A stretch of DNA of 64,000 nucleotides from the NCBI GenBank assembly GCA_963707955.1, contig OY970176.1, forward strand, positions 1 through 64,000, read 5' to 3'. The position numbers and the translations under genes are program-made. Positions within the stretch are counted from its first letter, which is position 1; every line of letters begins with the position of its first letter. The notes beneath the pieces were generated by a model. That model saw only the letters and a program-made list of their open reading frames with translations. It ran no database searches and was not told where the DNA came from. Shown piece after piece: positions 10,115-33,489 of this stretch. This DNA comes from Candidatus Bathyarchaeota archaeon (GTDB lineage Archaea; Thermoproteota; Bathyarchaeia; Bathyarchaeales; Bathycorpusculaceae).

Positions 10115-10179
10115 ATCCAAACGAGAAGACGCGCGCGTATATTGAATCACTTTAATGATGAGATGAGGCGAAATGGAGC

Positions 10180-11388
10180 TTGCGAGTTCTTTTTCTTTCG
10201 ATGTTTGATCCTTTTGTGGCTGCAACTACATATATGGGCCCTGGAGCTCATATACGAGGCCTTTCTCAATCCCTTAACAAGCTCGGTTGCGAAGTGCACA
10301 TATTAGTCTTGAATTCAAAAAACAATAATGGCGTCGTGCATGGAGTTCAAATGCACTATCTCACTCCTTCTCTTAGCGCGCGCTCGCTTTTGTCTTTTCA
10401 CGTACCATTTGATGGAGGCCGTGTTCTTAATCTGACTTCATTTAGAGAAGTTGCTAGATTATGCAGAGAATATAAGATGGATATTATTCATAGTCAGAGT
10501 CCGTCAGGTTATGGATACGGATTATTCCGTAGAGGCAACATACCTTTCGTTGCTACTCTGCATGGTACATCGTTCGGTGAACTTGGATCCTATTTTGACA
10601 TACCTCTTCCGTTCATCAACAGGGATGTTGTCTTAGGAGCAATGGGAGAAATGTTGTGGGCTTTTCTGACCTGCATAGAATATAAAAGCGCTGATAAAGT
10701 TATAGCGGTCAGCAAAGCTACAGCAGAAGAAACAGTGAGATTCTACCGTTTACCTAAAGATCGTGTCGTAACAATCCATAATGGAATAGATCTGCCAAAC
10801 CTTACAGATTTACCCATAAGAGAAGAGAACAAAGAACATACTTTGTTATCTGTGGGTAGGTTTGTGTGGAGGAAGGGTTACAGGTATTTGATCGGTGCGA
10901 TGCCTCAAGTTTTGTCAGAATATCCCGATGCCAAACTAGTTATAGTTGGTTACGGCGACCAAAGAACACCTTTGCAGCGGCATATTGAGAAACTTGGAAT
11001 CGAAGGTTCTGTGCGTTTCTTGGACAGGGTATCAAGGGAGAGACTCTATTCTCTTTATGACGAGGCAGAGGTTTACGTCCAACCTTCACTTTATGAGCCG
11101 TTGGGCATCACGATTTTGGAGGCGATGAGCATGAGCAAGCCAATTGTCGCAACACGTGTCGGAGGGATTCCAGAACTCATCACAAATGGTGTAGAAGGGT
11201 TATTGGTTGAGCCCAGAAACAGTTTACAGCTTGCGAGGGCGATAACTAATGTATTTTCAGATTCATCGTGCAGAGAAAAATTTGGGAGTAACGCGAGGAA
11301 GAGAGTTGAGAGAGAGTTTACGTGGGAAACAATTGCCAAGAAAACCTTTGAATTCTACAGGGACTTGTTAGATGGAACTGGAAAATAA
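10180..11388 (+). CDS. Glycosyltransferase family 4
   Basis: TLHG, IHNGID, VGRFVWRKG, EPLGITILEAM, TRVGGIPE. Confidence 0.92.
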   Translation: MRVLFLSMFDPFVAATTYMGPGAHIRGLSQSLNKLGCEVHILVLNSKNNNGVVHGVQMHYLTPSLSARSLLSFHVPFDGGRVLNLTSFREVARLCREYKMDIIHSQSPSGYGYGLFRRGNIPFVATLHGTSFGELGSYFDIPLPFINRDVVLGAMGEMLWAFLTCIEYKSADKVIAVSKATAEETVRFYRLPKDRVVTIHNGIDLPNLTDLPIREENKEHTLLSVGRFVWRKGYRYLIGAMPQVLSEYPDAKLVIVGYGDQRTPLQRHIEKLGIEGSVRFLDRVSRERLYSLYDEAEVYVQPSLYEPLGITILEAMSMSKPIVATRVGGIPELITNGVEGLLVEPRNSLQLARAITNVFSDSSCREKFGSNARKRVEREFTWETIAKKTFEFYRDLLDGTGK

Positions 11389-11628
11389 ACACGCGCGCTA
11401 GAGTTTAGTAATCGTATGGAATAAGGCAGTGAACTAAATGCTGAAAATGTCTTCTGCGTACATGCAATGAAACTTTCCGGAGAAGCGCATAGGTTGGGTA
11501 ATAACCTACAAGTTTGGAACAGTATCGCGGTATGCCCTTCGGGCAGAGCGTGCGCGAAAATCTGAGAAGGCGTTCAATTTAAGAAGATATCGATCTTTCT
11601 TATCGGATCTACAAGCGCGCGCAGTCTG

Positions 11629-13272
11629 TCAGGTTGAGAACATCATCACGGGGGTAGTTGCTATGCCTGAAGGATCGGCGCTTTGGATCCTGAAGTAATA
11701 TTTTGTCCCAGGTGTTAGTCCCGTCAGTGTAATGACGTGGCTGGTCACGCTTGCGGCATCAGTTACCAAGAAGCCTGTTACATGACTGTCCTTCCAATAA
11801 GGAAATACAACACCAACATCATTTACAGTAAGCTGGGACCAAGCAAAAAGCTGAGAAGAATTGTATTCCACGGTGCTGTTTGCCGCTGAACTCGTAGTCC
11901 ATGAAATCTGCTCTGAAGTGCTACTCAAAGCTGTCAGGGTAATCTTAGTTAACGAGAATGTTTGTGGAAGATTAAGCGCAGCCAAATATGGTATTGTGCT
12001 TAATGCGCCCGCAGTGTTTGTTTCGCCTGGGCCTTGACCGTAGGTTACAAGCCATCCATCTCCGCCATTAGCCATAACAAGGTTTACTTCAGTTACAAAC
12101 GTCGAAGTATTGTAAGTCTGGCCTGTGCCTCCCCAGCCTCCAGCAGCATTAAGGGAGGGGCATATTGGGATTATTCCGTGAGCAGCACCCGTATTATAAT
12201 TTTCCTCGTTTTGCATTAGACCTGGTATCCCGGCGATAAGTTGCGCAACATCGCTGGTACTGTTGGTGGGAGAATAAAACATCGGGGCGATCCATTGCAT
12301 AAGACCAAGCTTTATCCATGCTGCCGTGTCTTGTCCTTCTCCTACAGTCCAATAATCAGGTTCAGGTTCGCCAGCAAATTGGAGTTTATGTGGTGTGCAG
12401 CCGAATGTGAGGTTCGGATTTATGGCCAATGCCCACTGTTCAATATCTTGGACAAGCGTGGTGACAAGGTTTGTTCTCCATTCTAACCATTGAGTGTAGT
12501 ATAATCCATCTCCGCCGTAGCTGGGGGGTGCTATGTCTTGAATCCATTGTGTGTAGTTTGCAGTGGTGTCGAGTCCTGTCTGCTGCTGGAACAGTGTATA
12601 AGCATCAGGGTTGACTGGCATAACATCATCCCATCTGGTATAGTCAAAACTCAAACCATCAATGCCTGGATAATCAGTCACTAACTGAGTAGTTAGACTC
12701 TGCCAAAGTGTAATGCTCGCTGGGTTTGCAATGTCAAGCCAGCCCCCATTACCGGTAGGAGGTGTTGTTCCTAGTTGATAGTACCATACTGGAGTCAGGT
12801 TTCCATTCAGATATTCACAGTCCCGTTGTACGCCATCTCCACCGAAAGACTTGTACATTGTGTCAAGGTTCAAATACACTTTTATTCCGTAAGAGTGAAA
12901 GGCGCTGATAGCCCAACTCACATTATAGTATCCACTTAATGTAGTGTTTCCAAAATTGAATGTGCCATCAGCGAAAACTTCATAGTTGCGAATCGAGTCA
13001 ATGGTGACGAAGTTGACTCCAAAAGAAGCGCATGTTTGAGCTATGAGCGTCCAATTGTTAGTGGAGCTTATTTCGTCCTGTCCAAATCCCACGCCTCTCC
13101 ATTGACTTTCAGCAGCGCGCACGATGCTTTGTGTGGCGAGTATGTGCCCGCTTGAGGGAATAGTTATGGACTGATTTAAACTCGCTTGGCAAACGAGCAG
13201 AGCAGACAGAATTATCACTGCTGCGACAATCAGGGCTTTCTTCATCTTGCCATTTGAACCCGTTGAATACAT
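11629..13272 (-). CDS. Secreted GHL10/DUF187-like glycoside hydrolase with C-terminal FN3-like domain
   Basis: Signal peptide; WLDIANP, GIDGLSFDYTRW, WLEWR, GQD..W, PMFY; C-terminal HVITLTGLTPGTKYYFRI. Confidence 0.7.
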   Translation of the reverse strand: MYSTGSNGKMKKALIVAAVIILSALLVCQASLNQSITIPSSGHILATQSIVRAAESQWRGVGFGQDEISSTNNWTLIAQTCASFGVNFVTIDSIRNYEVFADGTFNFGNTTLSGYYNVSWAISAFHSYGIKVYLNLDTMYKSFGGDGVQRDCEYLNGNLTPVWYYQLGTTPPTGNGGWLDIANPASITLWQSLTTQLVTDYPGIDGLSFDYTRWDDVMPVNPDAYTLFQQQTGLDTTANYTQWIQDIAPPSYGGDGLYYTQWLEWRTNLVTTLVQDIEQWALAINPNLTFGCTPHKLQFAGEPEPDYWTVGEGQDTAAWIKLGLMQWIAPMFYSPTNSTSDVAQLIAGIPGLMQNEENYNTGAAHGIIPICPSLNAAGGWGGTGQTYNTSTFVTEVNLVMANGGDGWLVTYGQGPGETNTAGALSTIPYLAALNLPQTFSLTKITLTALSSTSEQISWTTSSAANSTVEYNSSQLFAWSQLTVNDVGVVFPYWKDSHVTGFLVTDAASVTSHVITLTGLTPGTKYYFRIQSADPSGIATTPVMMFST

Positions 13273-13586
13273 ATATACCCTTCGGCTGGTTCCAGTGTAT
13301 AGTAATACTTAATAAACCATTCTGTTGAACTGTACAACACAAACACGCCGCGGTAGGTTATGCTCGACGACGAAAAAGCGTGCGCATTGTCAAGGAATAA
13401 TCCCAATGTAGGCGCGCGCTGCCTCTGCCAAGATTTATTCCCACCAATGTGTCGTGAGCGCTATCGACGCAGGCAATGGTAATATCCCGCAAGCCACCTA
13501 TTTACAAAGGATTGGTGAGTAGCGCGCGCTTCCATTGGAACAAGATCTTTCTGAATCCAAGACAGGGTGGGATAACAACGACAAGT

Positions 13587-14636
13587 TTGCACGTTTGTGT
13601 TTTGATTACAACGTACAAGCGGTCCGATTTGTTAGGCTATGCCCTTGAAGGGCTTGAAAAACAAACCTACTCAGATTTCGAAGTCCTTGTAATTTTGAAA
13701 CCAAGCGGAGACAAAACTGAAGATGTCGTTAAGACTTATGAGAAAACATTGAGAATAAAATTGATTAAACAAGAGAAAGGCTACTTCGTAGACGCGTTAA
13801 ATCTTGGACTCGAACATGCCAAAGGTGATATCATAGCATTCTTGGACGATGACGCTGTTCCTTTTCCAGACTGGCTTAAAAACCATGTGGAAACGTATGC
13901 CAAATCAAAAGTTGGGGGAGTAGCAGGAAATGTCATACAGACATCATTATATAAGAAATTGACAACCAAGGACGACGTCTCGGAAATCATCCCAAACGAT
14001 AGACCATTTCTTGAAACAATGGGGCAGAAAATTTGGAGTCAACCTCTCCAAGGCCTAGAAAATCATCTTGTTTACATATCAAAAGCAGGAAAAGTGGATT
14101 ATAATTCTAGAATGTCACATCGCGCGAGGCATCAAACCGTGAAATCGATGCTCGGAATGGGCGCTAACATGTCTGTTCTATCTGAGGCAATAGAAGGCTT
14201 TAGATTTCCAGATTCATGGCTGCCGATCGAAGCAGCAACTGAGCAGTTCTTGGGCTGGCATATATGGAAAAGAGGTTATAACCTTTTTTTCAATCCTCAT
14301 GCAAGAGTTAGACATCTTGTACATGGTCAGACTCTGAGCCGCAACATCATTGACACGAGAAAGGAATTTTTGCGTTCGGTTGGAAGCAGCCTCCTTTATT
14401 ATCGTCTTTATGGGCTCGAACCAGGCCTGTCAAAGATGCGCAGAATCTGTTTGCTCATCTTCTCTGTTTTGACGAATATCAAGAAAATATGCAAAGACAA
14501 AGAAACCTGGAGAATTACAAGAATCAAAGCAGCGTTTTACTCAGAGCTTATAGGAGTGAAATGGCTCTTATCAAGAAAAGTGGGAGGGCTCTATTCTCTA
14601 AAGACGGCCTTCGAAAGATATGTCAAGCTTGAATAA
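13587..14636 (+). CDS. Glycosyltransferase family 2
   Basis: VLITTYKR, AFLDDD, GANMS; start moved to TTG 13587 because the ORF-track extension crosses a (CG)n tract. Confidence 0.85.
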   Translation: MHVCVLITTYKRSDLLGYALEGLEKQTYSDFEVLVILKPSGDKTEDVVKTYEKTLRIKLIKQEKGYFVDALNLGLEHAKGDIIAFLDDDAVPFPDWLKNHVETYAKSKVGGVAGNVIQTSLYKKLTTKDDVSEIIPNDRPFLETMGQKIWSQPLQGLENHLVYISKAGKVDYNSRMSHRARHQTVKSMLGMGANMSVLSEAIEGFRFPDSWLPIEAATEQFLGWHIWKRGYNLFFNPHARVRHLVHGQTLSRNIIDTRKEFLRSVGSSLLYYRLYGLEPGLSKMRRICLLIFSVLTNIKKICKDKETWRITRIKAAFYSELIGVKWLLSRKVGGLYSLKTAFERYVKLE

Positions 14637-14716
14637 TCATTGCAGAAATTTCGCGCGCGCGTCACGCTATAAATTGAAGCACTGCTGTCCAGAGTCCAAC
14701 TAGAAAAAGTCCACAC

Positions 14717-15573: not shown

Positions 15574-15770
15574 CAGCGCCTCCAAAACCCTGTAGCAACA
15601 GCAGCGCAGGTTCTGACAACGGGGGCCTCAAAATACTTCCAGCCGCACTTCGTAGAGCTGCAATACTTCACACGATGCGTAAGCAAAGACCTAACTTCTT
15701 CGCCCACAGGAGAAGACGGACTCAGGAACCTGAAAGCAGCCTCGCTTGCATACGAGAACGCGCGCGCATG
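15574..15770 (+). pseudogene. C-terminal remnant of a Gfo/Idh/MocA oxidoreductase
   Basis: Hand translation FVELQYFTRCVSKDLTSSPTGEDGLRNLKAASLAYEN resembles the C-terminus of 4934..5920 (FDELVYFTDCVRKDIAPSPSCEDGLKDLEVISLAYKN); ends in CGCGCGCGC. Confidence 0.8.
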
Positions 15771-18602: not shown

Positions 18603-18652
18603 TGCGCGCGCGAGAAAGCTTTTGCAGGAAGGGTCAAGGTTGACAGTTAGAT

Positions 18653-19339
18653 TTGACTTTTTTGAAGCAGGGGAAAGGCAAATATTCTGGCCTTGAGATT
18701 CAAATTATAAGGGAGAAAGTGCGTAAGGGAGTACCTTGCTTAATCCTGTTACTGATGCTCACACTAAGCGTTGCCTTATTTGAATTCCTGTACGTCAGGA
18801 ATTCTGTTTCCAGTGTTTCTGCAGTCGATGAAACGGCAGGCATAGGTGTATACTGGAATGCGGGCTGTACCAACTCGGTGCTTTCAATAAATTGGGGTGT
18901 TCTGTCTCCCGGACAGAGTGCGCAAGTCGTGGTCTACGTTCGAAATGAAGGAAATCAGCCAATTCTCTTGACTGTGGCACCGACAAACTATAGCCCAACG
19001 AATGCTTCTAACTATCTGAGTTTCACGTGGACCTGCGAAAACGCGACGATTCTGCCAAATGAAATTGTTCAGGTTACCACAAAGCTTTTTGTTTCTTCTC
19101 CCCAAACAACGGGAAATTTCACCTTTGGCTTTGACATAATCTTTGGGAAAGAAAATATCCTAGGAGACGTGAACGGTGATGGCGTCGTGAACATGCTTGA
19201 TCTTATGTTGATGCAAAAAGCTTTCGGCTCAACGCCAGGCTCACCAAACTGGAACCCAGCATGCGACCTAACCCAACAGGGAAAAATCGACATGAGCGCC
19301 ATCGTCATCGCTATCGAAAACTTCGGAGAATACGGTTAG
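18653..19339 (+). CDS. Secreted WGxLxPG-family protein with C-terminal dockerin type I domain
   Basis: TM/signal segment; GVYWNAGCT..INWGVLSPG..VYVRNEGN; GDVNGDGVVNMLDL...FGS...WNPACDL...KID. Confidence 0.8.
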   Translation: MTFLKQGKGKYSGLEIQIIREKVRKGVPCLILLLMLTLSVALFEFLYVRNSVSSVSAVDETAGIGVYWNAGCTNSVLSINWGVLSPGQSAQVVVYVRNEGNQPILLTVAPTNYSPTNASNYLSFTWTCENATILPNEIVQVTTKLFVSSPQTTGNFTFGFDIIFGKENILGDVNGDGVVNMLDLMLMQKAFGSTPGSPNWNPACDLTQQGKIDMSAIVIAIENFGEYG

Positions 19340-20580: not shown

Positions 20581-20789
20581 GGGCACCGTGGACGAAACGC
20601 CGATGAAACCATATATCAACATAACTTCCATAAATCATTTGTTGCCCTATCTTAAGACACAAGTCAGAAAAGCCTAAAAAACTATGAAGCTGAAAGATAT
20701 GGCACCTGAGCGCGCGCTGGAGCACACGCACATCAAGAACATCAAGAAGACATATAACCCCCGCACTGAACCAGTAGATCGGTGATCAA

Positions 20790-21023
20790 GTGATGGACCA
20801 GTGGAGAAGCAGAATAACACTGAACCCAAACGTACTGGCTGGAAAACCAATAATAAAAGGCACCAGGATATCCGTTGAATTCATCTTGGACCTTCTCGCC
20901 AACGGCTGGACAGCTAAAACAATACTGGAGAATTACCCGCAGCTCAAGAAAGAAGACATAACTGCAGTCTTAAAGTACGCCACCGAAATTTTGAAAGAAG
21001 AGAAGGTTTACCCACTTCCTTGA
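20790..21023 (+). CDS. DUF433 family antitoxin-like protein
   Basis: ITLNPNVLAGKPIIKGTRISVEFIL...YPQLKKEDI. Confidence 0.92.
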   Translation: MMDQWRSRITLNPNVLAGKPIIKGTRISVEFILDLLANGWTAKTILENYPQLKKEDITAVLKYATEILKEEKVYPLP

Positions 21024-21373
21024 CGAAATTCTTAGCCGACGAAAACATACCCATTAGAGCCGTGGAAACCCTAAAGCAGAAAAACATCGACATAATCCCA
21101 GTTCTGGACATCTCACACGGCCTAAGCGACCGAGAGGTACTTGACCTAGCAAACAGACAGGGCAGAATAATCATAACGTTTGACGCAGACTTCGGCAAAC
21201 TCGTATTCAAAGAAAAACGCAAAACGAAAGGCATAGTTCTTCTACGCTTCATCCCCAAATCCCCTCAACAAACAGCAAAAAGAATCGAACAAATAACAAC
21301 ATCTGGAATTCCATTAGAGAACTCCTTCCTCACGGTCAGAGAGGACAGCGTTCGAGTCATCCCAACGAAATAA
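21020..21373 (+). CDS. DUF5615 PIN-like toxin
   Basis: FLADENI, GLSDREVL, IITFDADFG; overlaps the DUF433 stop. Confidence 0.9.
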   Translation: MTKFLADENIPIRAVETLKQKNIDIIPVLDISHGLSDREVLDLANRQGRIIITFDADFGKLVFKEKRKTKGIVLLRFIPKSPQQTAKRIEQITTSGIPLENSFLTVREDSVRVIPTK

Positions 21374-21459
21374 AACCCACAGCGCGCGCGCTCCTCACCT
21401 ATGCATGCATGTCTTCGAGATAATGGTAAACCTTATATTCTTACAACTTGTAGTATAAA

Positions 21460-21702
21460 ATGGTAGTAACAGTGGGTAAGTACGAAACCGTTTCAGTAAA
21501 AGTCCCCCAAACAACGAAGGAGAAGATGAAGCAGCTGGGCATCAAACCCTCCGAGCTTTTACGGAGGGCCATAGAAGAAGAAATAAAAAGAAAACAAGTT
21601 CAAAACATCAAACAGGAAATACGAAGCATAAAAGCGACCCTTGACAAAATCCCCATGGAAACCATAATACAAAGCATCAGAGAGGACAGAGAACACAGAT
21701 GA
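21460..21702 (+). CDS. vapB: VapB-like (RHH) antitoxin
   Basis: TVSVKVP..KEKM..LGI..SELLRRAIEEE; ends IREDRE; overlaps vapC. Confidence 0.8.
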   Translation: MVVTVGKYETVSVKVPQTTKEKMKQLGIKPSELLRRAIEEEIKRKQVQNIKQEIRSIKATLDKIPMETIIQSIREDREHR

Positions 21703-22094
21703 GCTACATCTTCGATTCCTCAACAATATTCAAGGCAATAAAAGAAAACGCCGTCGAAATCCTAGCTAATAACTCAACACTAGACCTAACAAGATACGAG
21801 TTGGGAAACATCCTATGGAAAGAACACACGCTTCACAAGCGGATAAACCGCGAAGAACTGGAAAAACTCGTCAAACTCATAAAAAACGTGCTCAACCTAA
21901 TGGAAACCCTAACCATAAACTGCCACGAACAAGAAACACTAAACATAGCACACGACCTAAAAATAACCTTCTACGACGCATCGTACATATACCACGCCAA
22001 AAACAAGAAAACACCCCTAATCACCGAAGACAACGAATTAACGGAAAAAGCAAAACCACACATAAAAACACTGAAACTTCACAGCTTAACCTAA
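21699..22094 (+). CDS. vapC: VapC PIN-domain toxin
   Basis: IFDSS, YELGN, ITFYDASY, LITED. Confidence 0.9.
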   Translation: MSYIFDSSTIFKAIKENAVEILANNSTLDLTRYELGNILWKEHTLHKRINREELEKLVKLIKNVLNLMETLTINCHEQETLNIAHDLKITFYDASYIYHAKNKKTPLITEDNELTEKAKPHIKTLKLHSLT

Positions 22095-22200
22095 TCTCTC
22101 CCCAAAAATTCCTTTAAATTTTCCGCGCGCCCCACCAAACTGATCGACCGAGTCCTTAAACTCGCCAAGGTTAATGGTACACAAATTTTCTGGCCGGGTT

Positions 22201-22451: not shown

Positions 22452-22739
22452 ATGGAAAAAGCGTTTGAGATGGGCAAGACCTCGGCTACTGGAAGCTTCC
22501 AGCTGCTCATATGCGTAGCCGTGTCTACCATAATCTTGGCCGTCGGATCCATAATTTTGGGCAGGTTTCTGACGACCGCCGAGTACGGGCTTTACGGAAT
22601 CGTGCTCGTCCCCGCAACGCTGATCAACCTGTTCAGGGACTGGGGCATAAACAGCGCCATGACAAAGTACATCGCAACCCTCAGAGCCTCAAACAAGGAA
22701 CAAGAAATACACGATTACATCGTCATCGGCGCGCGCTAA
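22452..22739 (+). pseudogene. Truncated 5' copy of the flippase gene 24483..26114
   Basis: About 280 bp near-identical to 24493-24770; identity stops at GGC followed by GCGCGC at 22729-22736. Confidence 0.92.
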
Positions 22740-22837
22740 TCTACGACTTCATCCAAAAACTACAGAAAAACCCAAACGAACTCGAAATACTTGGCGACGG
22801 AACCCAAAACAAATCCTATCTCCACATAAACGACTGA
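22736..22837 (+). pseudogene. Internal fragment of an NAD-dependent sugar epimerase/dehydratase
   Basis: IYDFIQKLQKNPNELEILGDGTQNKSYLHIND fits the GxGxQ..SY..D segment of archaeal UDP-glucose 4-epimerase-like SDRs; bounded by (CG)n on both sides. Confidence 0.75.
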
Positions 22838-22859
22838 GGCAAAAGATGCGCGCGCGATA

Positions 22860-23114
22860 TTATTGGTAAATCGTTTTTCTTGGGCCTATGGCTATAATGT
22901 AGATGGTCTTGTCTTTCTCTGAAATGGTGTAGATTATTCTGAGTTTCCCAACTCGTAGGCTGTAGTTTTCTTTCAAGTCTCCGTGAAGTCGTTTTCCTGC
23001 GTAGGATTGAATCTCTAAACCGATTAAACTTTCTCGAACTTGGGTTTTGACCTTTTCCTGTAGCTTTTTATAGAATTTCTCGGCTTGTCTTGATAAGAGA
23101 ATCGTGTATTTCAA
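22860..23114 (-). CDS. relE: RelE/ParE family toxin
   Basis: AEKFYKKL, GKRLHGDL, YSLRVGKLRIIY, IGPRKTIY. Confidence 0.9.
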   Translation of the reverse strand: MKYTILLSRQAEKFYKKLQEKVKTQVRESLIGLEIQSYAGKRLHGDLKENYSLRVGKLRIIYTISEKDKTIYIIAIGPRKTIYQ

Positions 23115-23329
23115 TGGGCTTCTTCCTTTAGAAGACTGTGCAGTTCCTTGACTCTTCCAGTCTTGATGTCTTCGAGGCCTTTGCGGATGTCTTTCATCAT
23201 GTCTGGATCGCTTAAAATCTCAATGGTCTCCAAGAGCTCGCCCATTAGCTTTGTGGCTTCGTCAAGCTTCTGCTTGGTTTCGGAGAGGAGCTTTCGGTCT
23301 TCCTCATCTAAATATGCAACCTTCGCCAT
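23111..23329 (-). CDS. RelE-associated antitoxin
   Basis: LLETIEILSDPDMMKDIRKGLEDIKTGRV; overlaps the toxin start. Confidence 0.85.
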   Translation of the reverse strand: MAKVAYLDEEDRKLLSETKQKLDEATKLMGELLETIEILSDPDMMKDIRKGLEDIKTGRVKELHSLLKEEAH

Positions 23330-23543
23330 TAAAATCACTCAAGCATTACAGATGTGGATCCGACTAATAAATTTGAAAGCGGAAACGCATGGTAGCCTCA
23401 ACAAGTGCTTCGAGTGTTCTCTCTTCATGATAGTTCTAGTCAAATCGCTTTCTGACTGCTTAAAAGCTAAATCACAGATGAATTTAGCGCGAGCCACAAA
23501 TGTTTATAGACTTCCCACACCGTTCTAAAAACAGGTGAATTGA

Positions 23544-24208: not shown

Positions 24209-24482
24209 GTCACCCGATAGGCATGCTCCCACAATTAATTCTCATCCTTGCCGTAAAACTTAGCAAATTCTATTGAGCAACCTATAATCTTAAATGGTTT
24301 AACAACAACCTAGCGCGCGCTAGCGCTGAAAAAAACGACCGGGTACCCGAACTTTCAGGCACACGAGCCCTCAAAGTTCCTCTACCACGCGTCCTGCACA
24401 CAGATAAACTTCACCCGCAAACAACTAGACCACGAAACCGTTAAACAGATTCCGACCCCCATTTGAACAGGCTTAGAGAGGA

Positions 24483-27091: not shown

Positions 27092-27294
27092 AACCAGCGC
27101 GCTAGCGTGTTCCTAAATTCTTTCGGGAAGCAGCTTGCGTTGCTCATTTTGCTCTTCAACCATATTTGGACCATATTTGGACCATATAGGATACCCGGGG
27201 GGGAGGGTGTGAGAGCGAGAGAGCACCCAGCCGAACCTTGACGGTGACCATCGAAAAACGTCAAGCCTTCCTCTTGAACGCAATCTAGGAATTC

Positions 27295-27428
27295 AGGAAC
27301 AAGCATGCGTGCAAGAAACGGCTTCGACGTTCAAATACACCCTTCCAAAGTCTAGGAACTACACAAAAGGCCCAGAAAACGAGGCTTTCAGGTGCGCCAG
27401 ACCGGAAGGATCAGCGAAAGCTGAAAAC
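27295..27428 (+). repeat. Intergenic direct repeat, copy 1 (copy 2 is split: 30565-30582 plus 30817-30943)
   Basis: AAGAAACGGCTTCGACGTTCAAATACACC...GCTTTCAGGTGCGCCAGACCGGAAGG..CAGCGAAAGCTGAAAAC present twice. Confidence 0.93.
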
Positions 27429-27506
27429 GAGCAACTTCAGCGAGGGCGGATAACCAATATTTCTTTAAGCGTTCGTAAGGACATAATACGGTGAAGAGGG
27501 CTTACC

Positions 27507-28203: not shown

Positions 28204-28329
28204 GCTTCCACCCGCTCAACAAAAACCTTTTCGAAGCCCCTAAAATTCTTCTCTTGCCAAACCTACCTCTGACGCGATCTCCATCAATAATACTATCTGC
28301 AACGTATGTCTGACAATTGCACGCGCGCT

Positions 28330-28740
28330 TTATGGCTCCTTCTTCGGTTCGGTCTTTGCCGGTTCGGTCTTTGCCGGTTCGGTCTTTGCCGGTTCTTTCT
28401 CTTCGACTGTCTTCAAAGCCCCTTTTAATTCGACTTTAATCTCCCTCAGCAGGTTGACGCCTAAGGATCCAATTTTTCCACCGCCCCACATGACGAAAGC
28501 CATCAGTACAAACCAAACAAGCAAACCAGTAGCCCTGTTCATGTCTTTGCCTGAAACCACCAGCGTACCGTTTACGGAAATGTCTGAGAAATTGAACAGT
28601 TTCGGAGGGCCGTTGCTGCCCGTGAAAACAAGTATCATCTCAAAGACCGCGAAGAAAATCACAGCGACGCCTACGGCCAACAAAACGTATCCCACAATCC
28701 TTCCGTTTTTCCAGTTCAACTTCAAACGTTTCAGCCTCAC
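28330..28740 (-). CDS. Two-TM membrane protein with C-terminal (EPAKT)x3 repeat
   Basis: Hydrophobic helices; 15-bp tandem GGTTCGGTCTTTGCC at about 28346-28395. Confidence 0.75.
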   Translation of the reverse strand: MRLKRLKLNWKNGRIVGYVLLAVGVAVIFFAVFEMILVFTGSNGPPKLFNFSDISVNGTLVVSGKDMNRATGLLVWFVLMAFVMWGGGKIGSLGVNLLREIKVELKGALKTVEEKEPAKTEPAKTEPAKTEPKKEP

Positions 28741-28854
28741 AAACCACTACCAAATTACTTACTATAAAAGCTTGCATGTAAAAGCATTAACAAGCGCGCG
28801 CGTGGTAAGAAAGTATAAATAAAAGTAATACAAGCTTACTAACTGGTAACCGAA

Positions 28855-29106
28855 TTGCCCACGAAGAACGTTGGCCCAAAAGGGCAGGTTGTGATTCCTA
28901 AACGCATAAGAGATGCCTTGGGTCTAAAGCCAGGCGTCGACGTCACGATTGAAGTCAGAGGAGAAGAAATAGTGATAAGCAAACCAAAAATTGAAGGCAG
29001 TTACACCGAGTACTACACTTCCACATACTCTCCAAAACTGAAAGAATCCGTAGACGTCAAAAAAATAATAACCGAGGAAGTAGCCCAGAGACATGCCCTA
29101 CATTGA
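28855..29106 (+). CDS. AbrB/MazE-type antitoxin
   Basis: VGPKGQVVIPKRIRDALGLKPG. Confidence 0.92.
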   Translation: MPTKNVGPKGQVVIPKRIRDALGLKPGVDVTIEVRGEEIVISKPKIEGSYTEYYTSTYSPKLKESVDVKKIITEEVAQRHALH

Positions 29107-29503
29107 TTCGAACGTCTTCATATACGCCGCCATATACCAAACAGAATCGCAACAAAAAGCAAAAAAAGCCAAAGAAACACTCCTAAAGATAGAAAACGGA
29201 GAGATACCAGCATACACGTCAACGCTGACATGGGACGAAGTCGTATGGGTCGTCAGCAAGCTATTAAACAGAAATGACGGAATAAACCAAGGCAAAAAAC
29301 TACTCGGCTTCCCAAACCTAGAATTCATAGACGTAGACGAAGGGATACTCACCTTGGCTCAAAACCTATTAAACAAATACAAGCTCAGCCCGCGCGATTC
29401 CATACACGCAACCTCGGCAGTCATCAGAAAGATAAAAACAGTTATCAGCGACGACAAAGACTTTGACCAAGTCAAAGAAATAACCAGGACTCCACTAGTA
29501 TAA
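29093..29503 (+). CDS. vapC: VapC PIN-domain toxin
   Basis: YIDSNVFI, TWDEV, PRDSIHA, ISDDKDFD. Confidence 0.92.
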   Translation: MPYIDSNVFIYAAIYQTESQQKAKKAKETLLKIENGEIPAYTSTLTWDEVVWVVSKLLNRNDGINQGKKLLGFPNLEFIDVDEGILTLAQNLLNKYKLSPRDSIHATSAVIRKIKTVISDDKDFDQVKEITRTPLV

Positions 29504-29557
29504 CCCACGCGCGTGGACGTTTAAAGACTTGGAAACGGGATAGGAATAATCAGACGC

Positions 29558-29632
29558 CTCAAAATCTGTGCCGACGAAAGCGTTAACAATGCCATCGTTG
29601 AAGGCCTAAAGAGATGCCGCGTAGGAGCATGA
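29558..29632 (+). pseudogene. N-terminal remnant of a DUF5615 PIN-like gene
   Basis: LKICADESVNNAIVEGLKRCRVGA* resembles the N-terminus of 21020..21373 (KFLADENIPIRAVETLKQ); lies between CCACGCGCGTGG and ACGCACGT. Confidence 0.6.
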
Positions 29633-29737
29633 CGCACGTTAAGGTAAGGCAGCGAGTGTGATCGGCAGCCAAACTCAACAGTTTCCGACATATTTATTAA
29701 TGTAAGGCATTATATGTTTCTGTGGGTGAAATTGGTT

Positions 29738-29998
29738 TTGGTAGAAACCGTTACCGTCACTTCGAAGGGGCAGGTGACCATTCCTTCAAGGCTGAGAAGA
29801 GAACTGAAAATACTGAAAGGAGAAAAACTCCTGATTGTCCGCGAGGGAAACGCCCTCAAAATCATTCCAGTACCCAAGCTGTCCAAGTTAGCCGGCGTGG
29901 ACGAGGAAATGTTCCGTGACAGAAAGCCTTCAGAAGAAATTCAGACCATGAGAAAGGAGTGGACAAAAGAATTTGACAAACGAACCCAGCAAGCCTAA
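29738..29998 (+). CDS. AbrB/MazE-type antitoxin
   Basis: VTSKGQVTIPSRLRRELKI. Confidence 0.9.
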   Translation: MVETVTVTSKGQVTIPSRLRRELKILKGEKLLIVREGNALKIIPVPKLSKLAGVDEEMFRDRKPSEEIQTMRKEWTKEFDKRTQQA

Positions 29999-30416
29999 GA
30001 TCGTCCTGGACACAAAACCCTTCATCAAACTTTTCGCAAAAGAAGAAGGCTGGGAAACCGTTCAGAAAATCCTCTGCAAAATCGAAGATGACGAAATCGA
30101 AGCGACGATCAGCGTAGTCACCCTCACAGAAATCTACTACAAGTATCTGCACGAGAAAAGACCAGACTTGGCCAGAACCAGAACTCAAGAGCTCAGGTAC
30201 GCCGTATACCTCAAGAAGCTAGAGATAGACGAAGAGGCCGCCGTCAAAGCCGGCGAATTCAAAGGCAAATACAACGTTCCCATAGCTGACGCCTTCATAG
30301 CAGCCGCCGCCTACTTTGAAGCATCAACCATAATCAGCGACGACCCAGACTTCAAGAGAATACCCGAAATCAAAACCCTGACCGAAAAAGAATTCATCTC
30401 ACACCCGCCAACATAG
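29973..30416 (+). CDS. vapC: VapC PIN-domain toxin
   Basis: VLDT, TLTEI, IADAFIAA, SDDPDF. Confidence 0.92.
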   Translation: MTNEPSKPKIVLDTKPFIKLFAKEEGWETVQKILCKIEDDEIEATISVVTLTEIYYKYLHEKRPDLARTRTQELRYAVYLKKLEIDEEAAVKAGEFKGKYNVPIADAFIAAAAYFEASTIISDDPDFKRIPEIKTLTEKEFISHPPT

Positions 30417-30816
30417 CGCGCTAGCGTGTCCCCAAATTCAGTTTTTCAAGCGTGACGTGACCGAGTTGATTCATGTCCAATAGACAATGCTCCTTGCATC
30501 AAGATCAGACAGCAATCCTCGAACCAACCAAGCATATAAGAAAAACCGGCATGCGAACGAATAAAGGAACAAGCATGCGCGCTTTTCAACAATCCTCGCC
30601 AACTGTATATGCAAAACGTATATGCAAAATGTATATGCTTCTACGCGCTCCATTCTCTTTCTCACTGTGCCTTTCCTGACACTTTCAATTAATCTCAGAC
30701 TGACATTAAAGCGAACTTGCTCGCCTACTTCTTCCCTCCACTTATAATGATTCCCCCACAACTACAGGGAACCATCAGAAAACATCCTTCACCCTCTTAA
30801 AATAGAACTTGAACGA

Positions 30817-30943
30817 GCACGCACGCAAGAAACGGCTTCGACGTTCAAATACACCCCTTCCCAAGTCTAGGAACTACACAAAGAGCCCCGAAAACGAGGC
30901 TTTCAGGTGCGCCAGACCGGAAGGGCCAGCGAAAGCTGAAAAC
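30817..30943 (+). repeat. Intergenic direct repeat, copy 2 of 27303-27428
   Basis: Near-identical over about 125 bp with scattered substitutions. Confidence 0.93.
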
Positions 30944-31126
30944 TCGCATTATCTCGCCTGCCCAGAAAAAGATTTTGGACACAACTGAATCAAATGCTCA
31001 TTAAGACCATAAAGCATGATCTTCTGCGTAAGATTTATGTAGAGGATTATTCTATAGGACGATTCCTCATCGGTTTAATTAGCCGTTCTGTCAACTTTAT
31101 GCTGACGGAAAAGAAAGGAGAAGAAA

Positions 31127-31822
31127 ATGCTTCAGTCATCTGTGTCAGTGGTCATTCCCGCCTTCAACGAACAGAAAACCATAGGACACGTGATCGAAGA
31201 AACCATCTCGGTGATGGACAGCCTAGGAGTCCCATACGAGATCATCATAGTTGACGACGGGTCCACGGACAGAACAGGACAAGTAGCCACGACGTACAAA
31301 GCAACCGTTCTGACGAACGAAATAAACAGGGGAAAAGGCTACGCCATAAGAAAAGGCTTCGAACAAGCAACGGGCGACATCATCGTCACCCTGGACTCTG
31401 ACGGAGAACACAGCCCCAAAGAGATACCAGACCTACTCAATCCGCTGTCCAACGGCACGGACATCGTTGGCGGTTCAAGGTTCTTAGGCAACAACGCCTA
31501 CTCAACGACCAGACTCAACCGTCTCGGCAACTTCATCTTCAACATGGCCATCGCAACGCTAACTGGAAAACGGGTAACAGACAGCCAAACAGGCTTCAGA
31601 GCCTTCAAAAAAGAAGTCCTCCAGAAACTCAACCTAGCCTCTTCAGGCTACGAAATAGAAACCGAAATCACAGTTAAGGGACTGAAGAACGGCTTCACCT
31701 TCGAAGAAAAACCCATAACCTGCAAGCAGAGACAATACAGCGTTTCAAAACTGAAAATACTCAGCGACGGAACCAAAATCCTCAAAACAATGCTGAAGGC
31801 CAACCTGGCCACGATCGACTAG
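31127..31822 (+). CDS. GT2, dolichol-phosphate glycosyltransferase (DPM1-like)
   Basis: VIPAFNE, DDGSTD, NRGKG, LDSDGEH, GSRF, DSQTGFRA. Confidence 0.92.
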   Translation: MLQSSVSVVIPAFNEQKTIGHVIEETISVMDSLGVPYEIIIVDDGSTDRTGQVATTYKATVLTNEINRGKGYAIRKGFEQATGDIIVTLDSDGEHSPKEIPDLLNPLSNGTDIVGGSRFLGNNAYSTTRLNRLGNFIFNMAIATLTGKRVTDSQTGFRAFKKEVLQKLNLASSGYEIETEITVKGLKNGFTFEEKPITCKQRQYSVSKLKILSDGTKILKTMLKANLATID

Positions 31823-31909
31823 TTTTCGCCAGGCGCGCGCTAGTGTGAAAAGTCTAAGGGTCAAGAAACCTTAAAAACACTCCCTCAAGAATCTTCTAAT
31901 GAAAAGGAA

Positions 31910-32827
31910 ATGACCCACCAAGAAAAGCAAGGAGCAGAAGAACCTGCCGGCGCAAATGCCGAATTGGAATCAACGAAACAGCTCACAGCCACGCTTGATC
32001 AGCTGCAGAAAGAAGTTGCAAGTCTGAAGTCGCAGCTTGAGGCAACGAACCGAAAATCCTCAAGCAGAATCGGCATAGTCTTCGCTGTTCCCGGCATCTT
32101 GTCACTCGCATTCTCCGTCATAACAGCATCACAAGTCCTGGCATTCATCGGCCTGGGCTTAACGTTCTGGGGAGCCCTCTTCTTCTTGGTCAGACCCATC
32201 GCCTACGTCAGAGGCAACCTCCTAGGCATAACAGCAGTCACACTGTACTCAACGATCGACAGAATAATCAAAGACTTGAACTACGAAGGAAAGGGCCTCT
32301 ACGTGCCGCCATACCCAAGAGACGCTTATCTGCCCGAACACCTAAAAGGCCTCAAAGAATCCATCGTGTTCATATCCGCCGACGCCGACTCAGGCCCACC
32401 ATCGGTCGAGGAGATCGCGAGCAGCAGGTTCATGACAAAAAAACCCAGAGGAATATGCATAACTGCACCCGGATCAGGCCTCGTGGACCAGTTTGAAAAA
32501 ATGTTGAGAACAGACCTGACCAAGATGAACCTCGAAGACTTGTGCGCCAGCCTACCACAGATCATCCTGGAAAACTTTCAGCTCGCAAAAGAAATCGAGA
32601 TGAAAACAGAGGATCACCGAGTCATCCTGAAAACATCCGACTCAGTCTTCAAAAACCTCTACCTTGAAGAAGGCCCAAGAAGCGTGCGACTTCTAGGATG
32701 CCCTCTCGTCAGCGCCGTAGCATCCGCACTGGGGAAGACAACGGGCAAAGCGACTCTGATCGAGTCCATTAACACTTCGCCAGACGTTCAAACTATCGAA
32801 GTCTCCTACGGCTTCAAAGAAGGTTAG
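31910..32827 (+). CDS. Conserved-looking membrane protein (coiled coil, two TMs, soluble C-terminal domain)
   Basis: Long ORF; LGCPLVSAVA near the C-terminus. Confidence 0.65.
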   Translation: MTHQEKQGAEEPAGANAELESTKQLTATLDQLQKEVASLKSQLEATNRKSSSRIGIVFAVPGILSLAFSVITASQVLAFIGLGLTFWGALFFLVRPIAYVRGNLLGITAVTLYSTIDRIIKDLNYEGKGLYVPPYPRDAYLPEHLKGLKESIVFISADADSGPPSVEEIASSRFMTKKPRGICITAPGSGLVDQFEKMLRTDLTKMNLEDLCASLPQIILENFQLAKEIEMKTEDHRVILKTSDSVFKNLYLEEGPRSVRLLGCPLVSAVASALGKTTGKATLIESINTSPDVQTIEVSYGFKEG

Positions 32828-32831
32828 GAAG

Positions 32832-33029
32832 ATGAGGTTTCCACTGTCAGTCTCCGACATCGGACTGTGGCTCGCAGTCACCGCGATCATACTCTTGGTA
32901 ACCTCTGAACTGCTTTCCTCCTCTACCGGCCGACTGGGAAACGTTGCGATTGAAAAGAAACGTCTCAGATTAATCGCGTTAGCGCTCGGAATAGGCTTCT
33001 TGGCAACGGTCGTCATGCGCGTTGTTTAG
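32832..33029 (+). CDS. Small two-TM membrane protein
   Basis: Two hydrophobic helices, 4 bp downstream of the previous gene. Confidence 0.7.
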   Translation: MRFPLSVSDIGLWLAVTAIILLVTSELLSSSTGRLGNVAIEKKRLRLIALALGIGFLATVVMRVV

Positions 33030-33489
33030 CCAACGTAATCATAAACCCCATATTGGACTGCCATGTTTCTGACAACTCCATAAAAACCCTCTACAGGATT
33101 ATTCCTTACATGCGCGCGCCGTGGCCTCAACCTCAGACCAAACCTGCAATTTAAGGAGTTTCCTCACTATTTTTCATAGCAGCAGAGTTTTCGCCTTGTT
33201 TCGAAAAGGGAAGAACATGTATTAACTCGCCAGCGAAAGACAAACTTGAGGACGAAAACGCTCATGCAATGGCACAAGAGAGCACTGTCCGCACTGAACA
33301 GAGTGTATAGTGCCCTGAAAACCTAGCGCGCGCTGAGAGAGCAGCATCAAAACATGACCCAGAAAAAAACATGAAGGCAACAGCGGCTTTTACTCAAACA
33401 AGAAATATGGGGAGAGGCTGATGACGGCCTCTTGGTCTTGAAGCGCGCGTGTTCTCAGATTATGCTGCCTTGTGAAGGCTCTTGTGATG

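Follow-up and report, generated by a model that had tools for sequence, protein, structure and literature searches.

Integron attC sites are imperfect palindromes of 57-141 nt that serve an adjacent IntI integrase in a unidirectional array. Filler, N and P nucleotides added during end joining (bacterial and archaeal Ku-LigD NHEJ; TdT in V(D)J recombination) are absent from the parental sequences and sometimes G/C-rich or palindromic, the examples described so far being short, with a sequence that varies. To our knowledge, numerous joints that carry one stereotyped (GC)4-5 are undescribed, and a literature search for them found nothing. Cyanobacteria have HIP1 (GCGATCGC), their highly iterated palindrome; the HIP1 paper mentions GCGCGC and archaea nowhere (PMC4390886). 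The palindromic GC clusters found in mitochondrial genomes, those of yeast included, are short and G+C-rich, lie dispersed in intergenic DNA and turn over rapidly among close relatives (PMC4478555).

The DNA analysed here (the window) is a stretch of 64,000 nucleotides from the genome of a Bathyarchaeia archaeon (G000; 2.35 Mb, one contig), and its tracts of alternating C and G share features with each of these systems. Like attC, the tracts lie just beyond the stop codons of cassettes, accompany toxin-antitoxin and surface-modification genes, and occur where the order of cassettes varies between relatives; unlike attC, they are conserved over 10-12 nt, spread genome-wide, linked to no integrase and of de novo origin. 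Like HIP1, they are an 8-nt G/C-framed palindrome that is the most over-represented word of the genome, frequently extended palindromically, lineage-specific and of debated cause (PMC4390886). HIP1 is associated with GATC and CGATCG methyltransferases, whereas G000 gave no match to a C5 methylase; unlike HIP1, the tracts are 79% intergenic, scarce in orthologous DNA that is conserved, and located at structural breakpoints. Mitochondrial GC clusters are likewise tied to mobility and recombination, with an enzyme identified for neither, but clusters such as GC42 are elements of 30-40 nt that propagate as units (PMC4478555), while the tracts measure 8-12 nt, belong to an archaeal chromosome and arise at deletion joints.

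A scan of the window for maximal alternating C/G runs found 38 of at least 6 nt and 18 of at least 8 nt (11 of 8 nt, 4 of 9 nt and 3 of 10 nt). The rescan agreed with the earlier note, which had counted 18 runs of 8-10 nt with 17 of them at 10.1-33.4 kb, the remaining one being at 49393; the run that closed its range, 33443-33449, is 7 nt long. The sequence CGCGCGCG matched nine times against 0.65 expected, a number reached by none of 100 dinucleotide-preserving shuffles. The clustering was not peculiar to the supposed island, however. The genome held 455 runs of at least 8 nt, the longest under 12 nt, and while the 17 runs at 10-34 kb exceeded the genome mean of 4.65 per 24 kb, 2.6% of 24-kb windows had 17 or more, with a maximum of 23. 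The tracts are thus a property of the whole genome and of the genus: the motif was in excess in all 10 other same-genus genomes searched, and sister genera were poor in it. In G000, GCGCGCGC was the top 8-mer, with 464 copies against 25-34 expected under zero- to third-order models. The core is A-(GC)4-T, that is A-GCGCGCGC-T, with A at -1 in 71% and T at +1 in 70%; the flanks beyond are unconserved, so that the conserved length is about 10-12 bp in all. The G-first phase dominated, with 374 (GC)4 cores (summed counts) against 36 exact (CG)4 runs. By crude, longest-ORF gene calls, 360 of the 455 tracts (79%) were intergenic, compared with 16% of the genome.

Twelve stop codons had been named as having a tract 0-30 bp beyond, and all matched the ORF list. 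At the left of the cluster, a CGCGCGCG tract (10130..10137) began 15 nt beyond the stop of the GT1 ORF 8930-10114. A GCGCGCGC tract (10376..10383) lay within the GT4 ORF 10180-11388, which was followed after 3 nt by CGCGCGC (7 nt, 11392..11398) and then TAG. Further GCGCGCGC tracts were located 6 nt beyond the stop of the minus-strand ORF 11629-13272 (11615..11622), in intergenic DNA (13412..13419) and at the 5' margin of the GT2 ORF 13476-14636 in its longest reading (13522..13529). The claim that all tracts but the one at 10376 fall outside coding sequence held roughly, the exception being 13522-13529, 46 nt inside that longest reading; the Pfam match of this ORF begins at residue 41, so the true start may be further downstream. 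The 10-nt CGCGCGCGCG (14652..14661) was 15 nt beyond the stop at 14636, and CGCGCGCGC (15759..15767) was intergenic. The GCGCGCGCG tract at 18604..18612, in the gap that separates ORF 15980-18496 from the dockerin ORF 18653-19339, was bridged by contigs of sequencing run X1, and the intergenic GCGCGCGC tract at 20710..20717 by contigs from both X1 and a further run, X2.

Several tracts bordered cassettes found in other species. A (GC)5 tract (21382..21391), 8 nt beyond the stop of the DUF5615 ORF 21020-21373, was 22 nt ahead of a plus-strand CcdA-like/PIN toxin-antitoxin cassette (21413..22124) with 95% identity to a copy in the sister species G001 (G001:C1:390524-391235), where the neighbours differ from those in the window. 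At its right end, 29 nt beyond the stop at 22094, was CGCGCGC (7 nt, 22124..22130), in place of which G001 holds about 105 bp of other DNA. Homology to G001 (22449-22730) and to a second sister species, G007 (22452-22722), ended at the GCGCGCGC tract 22729..22736. At the GCGCGCGCG tract 22848..22856, 3 nt beyond the ParE ORF stop (22860), began a minus-strand cassette of the ParE toxin and an upstream small ORF (22836..23494), shared with two other species (G001:C32 and G007:C13) at 98-99% identity, as against 92-95% for core DNA. A minus-strand cassette with ORF 28330-28740 (28360..28801) was common to G001 and G007; CGCGCGC (7 nt, 28322..28328) lay 1 nt beyond the stop of this ORF, and the homology ended at the GCGCGCGCG tract 28794..28802, which both relatives retain. 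In G001 this cassette adjoins the CcdA/PIN cassette, with a GCGCGCGC tract between them.

The longer palindromes reported at 24310, 29505 and 49391 were all present. The first, the 14-nt CTAGCGCGCGCTAG, contains the GCGCGCGC tract 24313..24320 upstream of the flippase ORF 24483-26114, and the second, CCACGCGCGTGG, contains CGCGCG (29508..29513), 4 nt beyond the stop of the PIN ORF 29093-29503. The third, GAGCGCGCGCGCTC, contains a (GC)5 tract (49393..49402) and lies where a collinear core of 92-95% identity is broken by a short stretch of variable DNA (49.3-49.9 kb). Two plus-strand MITEs were also adjacent to stop codons. The M1 copy at 27097..27312 (216 bp) begins 5 nt beyond the stop at 27091 and has the ends GCGCGC-TAGCGTGTTCCT... 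and ...AGGAACAAGCAT-GCGTGC, while a short M1-type copy at 30416..30582 (167 bp) has GCGCGC at each end, its first base being the final stop base of the PIN ORF 29973-30416 (0 nt, overlapping). A plus-strand GT2 gene cassette (31112..31830) is duplicated in G000 at 770416-771134 (88%) and 857348-858066, and of the three copies only that in the window is terminated by a tract, GCGCGCGC at 31833..31840, 10 nt beyond the stop at 31822 and 3 nt beyond the end of the duplicated segment. Homology to G001:C5 (32168-33113, 92%) stops at the GCGCGCGC tract 33112..33119; the last one, 33326..33333, had no alignment to the G001 and G007 loci compared.

A check proposed earlier was whether tracts coincide with the presence/absence breakpoints seen between close relatives. 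In the window they did, tract-ended cassettes (such as CcdA/PIN, ParE and ORF 28330-28740) being rearranged in a relative, and the same held genome-wide against both sister species and for segments duplicated inside G000. The two sister genomes are draft metagenome-style assemblies with 5-6% contamination, in 40 contigs (G001) and 70 contigs (G007). With G001, alignments covered 42% of the intergenic bases but just 4 of the 55 intergenic tracts (p ~1e-8); with G007, 61% of the bases but just 19 of 84 tracts. BLAST HSP ends, exact only to a few bases, were within 3 bp of a run of at least 6 nt in either genome in 18 of 84 cases (G001) and within 3 bp of a G000 run of at least 8 nt in 21 of 276 (G007), the random intergenic null being 1.06%. 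For dispersed duplicates within G000, 17 of 108 ends were this close to a tract, compared with a null of 1.3%. Our reading of the alignments found at least 12 duplicate pairs with a tract on one copy only, precisely at the homology end. Where both copies have a tract the offset to the cassette can vary, as for CcdA/PIN (5 vs 22 nt). One 585-bp segment (715099-715683 and 1421017-1421601) is 100% identical in its two copies, with tracts on each side of both.

Among the G000/G001 events in which one allele was 30 bp or less, a tract replaced 88-4089 bp in 11 of 22, as read from the alleles; in the G007 comparison a tract was present in just 7 of 45 short alleles. The long alleles were mostly tract-free at both ends. 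In three deletions that could be polarised (about 1-4 kb), a new (GC)4-5 occupied the joint, at a place that was tract-free in the ancestral DNA, the polarity of two of them presuming, from identity levels only, that G007 lies outside G000 and G001. At G001:C1 214339, (GC)5 stands in place of a segment of about 4 kb that is homologous in G000, G007, G009, G004 and G008, none of which has a tract at either breakpoint. At G000 1768846 a tract replaces 991 bp common to G001 and G007, and at G001 214716 one replaces about 1 kb common to G000 and G007. Three further polarised deletions (566, 517 and 1093 bp) had clean joints without a tract. Inside aligned DNA, some tracts were identical base for base across species, others substituted for a small block of equal length, and 16 (5 with G001, 11 with G007) differed by 1-2 substitutions; clean 8-10-bp tract indels in conserved DNA numbered 2 of 26 (G007) and 0 of 14 (G001). 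Insertion into tracts was also seen. A 532-bp insert sits in place of a tract common to G000 and G007, and an element of 1750 bp, its inverted ends of M1 type, is inserted in a tract that is empty in G001 and G007.

On these alignments, the tracts evidently mark the ends of deleted, inserted, duplicated or moved segments, both between species and within the genome, and we put the probability that they are junction marks, scar plus hot spot, at about 0.8. Of the two possibilities offered by the earlier note, junction scars are favoured over recombination sites because tracts arise de novo at derived deletions, and scars turned hot spots fit better than an integron-like site.

How the marks are made is a more tentative matter. 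Somewhat short of an even chance is given to a mechanism in which the tract is filler synthesised at the illegitimate joining of two DNA ends. A few G/C alternations would be added to each end and, because (GC)n is self-complementary, the tails would pair and then be sealed. Selection would leave the surviving joints between genes, tolerated as near as 0-30 bp beyond a stop on the downstream side, while the promoter would have to be retained on the upstream side. Existing tracts then serve as landing sites, as the insertions of the IS5-type MITE family show. The A...T flank preference and fixed G-first phase are not expected from simple filler synthesis and are more suggestive of a sequence-specific enzyme. 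The likeness to end-joining filler lies in the extra nucleotides at the joint and in an NHEJ operon at G000 957179-960234 (LigD-polymerase/Ku/ligase-phosphoesterase), in which the PolDom match is divided over two frames. In a survey of 201 genomes of the class, Ku matched in 55 and the LigD PolDom in 66, but neither tracked the GCGCGCGC counts, which were raw and not GC-normalised. Genus g23 is Ku-positive yet has 1-46 copies, and the motif-rich genomes with no Ku or PolDom match include G219, G080, G089, G100, G105, G217, G133, G127 and G094. No co-occurring enzyme was found class-wide, as neither Ku/LigD, C5 methylase nor IS5 transposase follows richness; a Z-alpha search returned nothing, as did its controls.

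A dedicated cassette-recombination system, in which the (GC)4 palindrome is the target of a sequence-specific recombinase or nuclease that cuts it and exchanges, excises or inserts the DNA between tracts as in integrons, is unlikely. The idea that cassettes are assembled at tracts was borne out to the extent that tract-bounded cassettes are reshuffled across species. The 585-bp segment bounded by tracts, insertions that enter existing tracts, a palindrome with A/T flanks resembling a dimer binding site, and a patchy lineage-specific spread like that of a selfish system also speak for it. A fixed integron-like site is opposed by the short conservation (10-12 bp), the mostly tract-free long alleles, the appearance of tracts where the ancestor had none and the varying distance from tract to cassette (CcdA/PIN, and more in duplicates). 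Among candidate enzymes, TnpB and reverse transcriptase gave no match, and the lone IS5-type transposase, whose match is split, does not follow tract richness.

Rather less probable is that the tracts are by-products of transposition, either footprints or fused terminal and target duplications of IS5-type elements and MITEs that cause the rearrangements. G000 has about 25 M1 MITEs whose ends are identical to those of an IS5-like element (389080-390159; ends GCGCGC-ATGCGTGTTCC..., TA on each side, DDE_Tnp_1 gene), and its IS5-type transposase gene is single and split. At no fewer than five sites one genome has a MITE and the other a naked tract, tract A/T flanks are similar to those of MITEs, and two 6-nt ends overlapping by at least 2 nt would give both the 10-nt maximum and the G-first phase. 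Yet an inverted-repeat remnant adjoined only 4 of 455 runs of at least 8 nt, compared with 60 of 510 6-mers, and tracts are abundant in genomes without the M1 family: G009, G008 and G004 have 359, 254 and 128 copies of GCGCGCGC but 1, 2 and 0 matches to the M1 repeat pattern. In the cases of known polarity the tract predates the element inserted in it, clean tract indels are rare, and the ancestral deletion sites have no target-like sequence. Transposase homologues, present in 48 of the 201 class genomes, showed no relation to tract richness. Judged by sequence, bare tracts are evidently not MITE remnants; the M1/IS5-type family appears to target existing tracts with a 6-bp GCGCGC duplication.

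A HIP-like motif, enriched by methylation-linked repair bias or by function (protein binding, Z-DNA or supercoil buffer) and only secondarily fragile or recombinogenic at breakpoints, is improbable. The rank of the 8-nt palindrome as top word, in which it matches HIP1 (PMC4390886), would suit such a motif, as would the prevalence of substitutions (16 cases) over clean indels (2), the several N6/N4 methyltransferase genes and the entry of insertions into tracts. No C5 methyltransferase was matched in single-contig G000, however, and among 31 relatives just 3 gave a match; tracts are scarce, not maintained, in conserved orthologous intergenic DNA, and point mutation cannot yield de novo tracts at deletion joints.

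Chimeric library or assembly joins at GCGCGC-type sites, a danger raised for BssHII sites, have nothing specific in their favour apart from the position of the tracts at joints, and are close to refuted by the excess in all 10 other same-genus genomes searched, by tracts conserved base for base across species and by independent Logan short-read contigs from four runs that bridge 18604, 20710, 21382, 22124, 26865 and 28794-29508.

Read as junction scars that became hot spots, the tracts point to what may be a new, as yet undescribed means by which joints in DNA are sealed or marked.

A run scan of the window returned 38 maximal alternating C/G runs of at least 6 nt, 18 of which were at least 8 nt long. 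The 18 tracts claimed by the earlier note were thus recovered, 17 of them starting between 10130 and 33326 and the lone remaining one at 49393. The three longer palindromes that it named were present as described, and the twelve tracts said to lie just past a stop codon all did so, with gaps of 0 to 29 nt. The claim that only the tract at 10376 was not in non-coding DNA held broadly, although the tract at 13522 fell a short way into a GT2 ORF when that ORF is read at its longest. CGCGCGCG occurred nine times in the window against an expectation of 0.65, and none of 100 dinucleotide-preserving shuffles reached nine. The ORFs scanned at 1-33 kb included glycosyltransferases, toxin-antitoxin genes, a flippase and others. 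Near the tracts were glycosyltransferases of families 1, 2 and 4, a polysaccharide deacetylase, a DUF2206 membrane protein and a flippase, together with several toxin-antitoxin pairs (PIN, ParE, CcdA-like, DUF5615). As a whole, positions 1-34000 constituted a surface-glycan island (GT1/GT2/GT4, polysaccharide deacetylase, DUF2206, flippase, dockerin protein, GHL10/fn3 protein) in which at least five toxin-antitoxin modules were interleaved, and which was almost wholly unalignable to the draft assemblies of two sister species, G001 and G007. Structured RNA or tRNA anchors were ruled out, as the window gave no Rfam match at gathering score and no tRNA or tmRNA by ARAGORN.

The source genome, G000, is a single contig of 2,346,764 bp with 47.9% G+C, of which the window is the first 64,000 bases, and contained 455 runs of at least 8 nt. 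The run lengths were distributed as 510 of 6 nt, 186 of 7, 267 of 8, 130 of 9, 56 of 10 and 2 of 11, with none longer. By count, GCGCGCGC was the top 8-mer of the genome, with 464 copies observed versus 25 expected from a zero-order model, 28-34 from orders 1-3 and 108 from order 4. It was also in excess in all ten other genomes of the genus (29-434 copies, mostly drafts), and eight other genera of the family had 0-14 copies. Across 201 genomes of the class, raw counts that carry no GC normalisation gave a patchy richness and a GCGCGCGC:CGCGCGCG ratio of approximately 2:1 in several distant Bathyarchaeia lineages. The tracts were therefore genome- and genus-wide, and the view that they are a feature of the island was not borne out; the 10-34 kb region was dense, with 17 runs where 24 kb hold 4.65 on average, but 2.6% of 24-kb windows had as many or more, the maximum being 23.

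The form of the tract was stereotyped. The phase was fixed, with 231 of the exact 8-nt runs G-first and 36 C-first, and the runs of 9 and 10 nt appear to come from a (GC)4 core lengthened by chance and from a less numerous (GC)5 class. The flanks had A at -1 in 71% and T at +1 in 70%; the preference for T at -2 and for A at +2 was weaker. Beyond 2 nt on either side, conservation in the G000 tract flanks was at background level, so the tract as part of a longer repeat was rejected. A crude gene set of longest-ORF calls (2399 ORFs) made 84% of the genome coding and placed 360 of the 455 runs between genes; 80 of 360 distances placed the run 0-30 bp from a 3' gene end and 20 of 360 from a 5' end. 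The density per kb was 1.24 in convergent, 0.80 in divergent and 0.76-1.11 in tandem spacers. A terminator or promoter signal was rejected, since all spacer types hold tracts and the G000 flank profile had no T-run after them.

The earlier note had raised the concern that the joints were chimeras. The tracts at 18604, 20710, 21382, 22124, 26865 and 28794-29508 were bridged by short-read contigs from four public runs, all of a single study that possibly covers the source sample, and the joints were thus spanned by independent contigs. The bridging contigs and the motif excess in all ten congeners searched indicate that the tracts are not an artefact. No alternative joints at tracts were found in the Logan contigs of the four runs, contigs of a kind that drop rare variants. 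At 29178-30392, the contigs of run X3 over both PIN cassettes had many base differences that those of runs X1 and X2 did not, which suggests a diverged allele of the PIN cassettes alone, from a co-occurring strain.

The proposal that homology breakpoints in relatives coincide with tracts was substantiated in the window, against G001 and against G007. The comparison used contig C1 of G001 (392 kb), 88-96% identical to G000 1.67-2.05 Mb, and contig C1 of G007 (790 kb). Against G001, 42% of intergenic bases aligned versus 4 of 55 intergenic tracts, and 57% of coding bases versus 4 of 18 coding tracts; the corresponding values against G007 were 61% versus 19 of 84 and 80% versus 11 of 25. Conserved DNA is thus avoided by the tracts. 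The edges of aligned homology (HSP ends) were within 3 bp of a run of at least 6 nt in either genome in 18 of 84 cases for G001. For G007, 21 of 276 were within 3 bp of a G000 run of at least 8 nt (p ~4e-12), compared with 1.06% of random intergenic positions and 0.2% of any position.

Dispersed duplicates within G000 behaved in the same way. There were 27 pairs of at least 400 bp, and 17 of their 108 ends were within 3 bp of a tract of at least 8 nt (null 1.3%, p ~1e-13); 15 of 54 junctions had a tract in at least one copy. Reading of the alignments showed that in pairs ending at a tract usually a single copy carried it (at least 12 pairs). Where both copies had a tract, its offset to the common sequence could vary, by approximately 7 nt for 999121/2298458; the pair 715099/1421017 was 100% identical with both tracts included. 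The repeats were rejected as insertion sequences, being ordinary genes for GT4, TBP, an SSB-like OB-fold protein and Alba. One set of duplicated blocks, found at G000 870337-873678 and in part at 1415709-1418018, 1341012-1342266 and 1663284-1663965, carried everyday genes of chromatin and transcription (Alba, TBP, the SSB-like OB-fold protein) together with GT4, and several of its ends were on tracts. A tandem duplication with a 5,996-bp unit at 99.95% identity was also present at 2096997-2108976.

Within the window, the 10-33 kb region was mostly without counterpart in the G001 and G007 loci compared, and the pieces that did match stopped at tracts. Homology of the CcdA/PIN cassette (21413-22124) stopped at the tract at 22124, that of 22449-22730 at 22729, that of 28360-28801 at 28794 in both sister species and that of 32168-33113 at 33112. 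The ParE cassette began at the tract at 22848, and a duplicated GT2 gene (31112-31830) ended 3 nt short of the tract at 31833. The cassette of ORF 28330-28740 and the CcdA/PIN cassette, which are 6 kb apart in the window, adjoin across one GCGCGCGC in G001, and the distance from the CcdA/PIN cassette to its tract was 5 versus 22 nt between copies. From 39 kb onward the window was collinear core at 92-95% identity, and the lone tract at 49393 was within a short variable insert there.

Between G000 and G001, 43 indels or replacements were inspected base by base. One allele was at most 30 bp and the other at least 80 bp in 22 of the 43, and in 11 of these 22 the short allele was essentially a (GC)n run where the other genome had 88-4089 bp; the long alleles were mostly without a tract at their ends. 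The G007 comparison was weaker, with a tract in 7 of 45 short alleles and at the joint in 31 of 91 events. Classical mobile DNA looked different: tracts were lacking at an insertion sequence whose target duplication is 9 bp and at the probable integrative elements bounded by direct repeats of 11-17 bp, one of these elements being at a tRNA-like repeat. Two inserts absent from G001, at G000 1928969-1946227 (17.3 kb, 17-nt direct repeats) and 1726445-1736570 (10.1 kb, 11-nt direct repeats), had ends without tracts and are probably integrative elements.

Polarity could be assigned at some loci. At G001 214339, where G001 had only (GC)5, a homologous collinear segment of 3.9-4.1 kb was present in G000, G007 and three more distant genomes of the genus (G009, G004 and G008), and neither breakpoint had a tract in these five. 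The left breakpoint of G001 is within sequence conserved in all of them. The G001 allele is a derived deletion whose tract was created de novo. At G000 1768846, CGCGCGCGC replaced 991 bp common to G001 and G007, and at G001 214716 a tract replaced approximately 1 kb common to G000 and G007. Given G007 as the outgroup of G000 and G001, a branching inferred from identity levels, these would be two further de novo deletion tracts. Three other polarised deletions (566, 517 and 1093 bp) had clean joints and no tract. Polarisation covered the 18 of 43 events whose flanks could be placed in the G007 contig. Among tracts within aligned DNA, most differences were of one or two substitutions (16 cases); clean indels were rare (two), and in a few cases a block of the same length was swapped for the tract.

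One explanation for these joints is a sequence-specific recombinase or nuclease acting at the tracts, and a precedent for cassettes with sites past the stop codon is the integron. The integron attC site is ~57-141 nt long with a conserved imperfect-palindrome architecture, whereas here just the (GC)4 core and the A/T at -1/+1 (weaker at -2/+2) were conserved. Integron arrays have sites at both cassette ends and one in the empty allele, an expectation that the tracts failed: there was no tract at either end of the long alleles corresponding to G001 211923, 19267 and 151889, nor at 214339 in the five genomes. An integron array also has a tyrosine integrase beside it; the ORFs covered on this point were those at 1-33 kb, described above. 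The fixed phase and the A...T flanks nevertheless keep an enzyme of this kind in play.

A second explanation is that the tracts are a transposon by-product. The MITE family M1 (~215 bp, ~25 copies) has GCGCGC on its flanks, with window copies at 27097-27312 and 30416-30582, and an IS5-like element of 1080 bp with M1-type ends and a split DDE_Tnp_1 gene was found at G000 389080-390159. A 1750-bp G000 element, M1-like at its ends and carrying an HTH-MEDS gene as cargo, occupied a site that was an unbroken GAGCGCGCGCT in G001 and G007. The filled site had 8 + 6 alternating bases, so the tract preceded the element and the gain was 6 nt; of other filled and empty pairs, two differed by 6 nt and one by 2 nt. 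A 532-bp insert in G001 took the place of a tract common to G000 and G007, and a MITE at G007 132727 corresponded to a bare tract in G000 and G001, the outgroups having no alignment there. An inverted-repeat trace (at least 13 of 18 against the repeat consensus; control 0.2%) was found beside 60 of the 510 6-mers and beside 4 of the 455 tracts of at least 8 nt. The tract-rich genomes G009, G008 and G004 were nearly M1-free, with 359 tracts and 1 repeat-pattern match, 254 and 2, and 128 and 0, respectively. On these two grounds bare tracts were rejected as MITE or IS remnants. A paired-end search of G000 found no long pair that could be the autonomous partner of M1. The larger M1-ended elements had cargo without a transposase, namely an HTH-MEDS regulator, a truncated H+-pyrophosphatase and, as read from the translation of one element, a putative SAM methyltransferase-like ORF. 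IS5-type transposase homologues occurred in 48 of the 201 class genomes, unrelated to tract richness. A transposon origin is also in play.

Two other repeats lie beside the window MITEs. A repeat of ~120 nt (27306-27430 and 30825-30943, 94% identity), each copy downstream of a MITE, had no further copies in the genome and no Rfam match. A short repeat with reiterated TATATGC at 30583-30650, which directly adjoins the GCGCGC end of a MITE, matched 16 times in G000 and dozens of times in G001 and G007, and could be either another family of MITEs or a portable promoter.

The third explanation in play is a HIP-like repair bias; the tracts resemble HIP1 as an octameric palindrome grossly over-represented genome-wide (464 versus 25-34). 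Over-representation is shared with HIP1 (PMC4390886), and turnover with mitochondrial GC clusters (PMC4478555). In contrast to HIP1, a cognate orphan methyltransferase was not found co-distributed: the C5 methyltransferase PF00145 had no match in G000 and matched in 3 of 31 relatives, and G000 had N6/N4 methyltransferases. Also in contrast, the tracts were not maintained at orthologous positions (4 of 55 aligned in G001, 19 of 84 in G007). The tracts differ from both precedents in being an 8-12-nt unit at structural breakpoints of an archaeal chromosome. In the literature searched, there was no earlier account for archaea of GCGCGCGC being enriched or of (GC)n serving as filler at junctions.

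Candidate enzymes were sought. A complete NHEJ-type operon of archaeal kind at G000 957179-960234 encoded LigD_Prim-Pol, Ku and a ligase fused to a 3'-phosphoesterase (LigD_N), the PolDom match being split over two reading frames near the C-terminus. Among 31 relatives, Ku was present in G000, 7 of 10 same-genus genomes and 1 of 20 from other genera; the three same-genus genomes that had no Ku were 65-89% complete. Across the class, Ku was found in 55 and PolDom in 66 of the 201 genomes, and the link to richness failed in both directions. Ku/LigD tracking of tract richness, which had seemed to hold among the 31 relatives, was consequently rejected. Reverse transcriptase, PolX thumb, TnpB and Prim-Pol PF09250 had no match in G000, and Z-alpha PF02295, the domain that would read a Z-DNA element, had none in G000 or in any of 14 control genomes.

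The comparisons showed that the tracts mark junctions in the flexible genome; some are born de novo at joints and some become insertion sites later. We tentatively infer that they are filler from the illegitimate joining of DNA ends. A filler (GC)n would be written at the joint, self-complementary G/C tails would allow two ends to pair, and selection would retain the joints that spare genes and promoters, which would place the tracts just past stop codons. The fixed phase, the A...T flanks and the lack of a co-distributed enzyme weaken this filler mechanism and keep the three rivals alive. A bolder reading, to which we give a probability of roughly 0.3, is that a joining activity of these archaea writes a stereotyped (GC)4-5 palindrome wherever DNA is joined illegitimately, for instance at deletions, captured fragments and duplications, and that the tag becomes the preferred pad of the next insertion, including those of a specialised MITE family.

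Base-by-base reading connected the commonest word of the genome with the joints left where DNA was deleted, inserted or duplicated, and at least some copies were caught arising there. Short, highly iterated palindromes, among them HIP1 and the GC clusters of mitochondria, were recognised decades ago and, to our knowledge, have no agreed mechanism; an old compositional puzzle here becomes a testable question on archaeal DNA joining, whose end-joining pathways are poorly known. Bathyarchaeia are abundant in sediment with very few cultures, and the tract is a simple marker, readable from sequence, of where their flexible genome starts and stops. If the bolder reading is true, flexible-genome islands would self-assemble cassette by cassette without a classical integrase, and the ~2:1 signature in other Bathyarchaeia lineages would represent a recurrent archaeal mechanism. 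The writer enzyme, if it exists, would represent junction tagging of a kind not seen before. Should the cause prove instead to be a repair bias or a transposon specialised on the tract, the tracts would still illustrate how a process of this sort governs the places where accessory genes settle.
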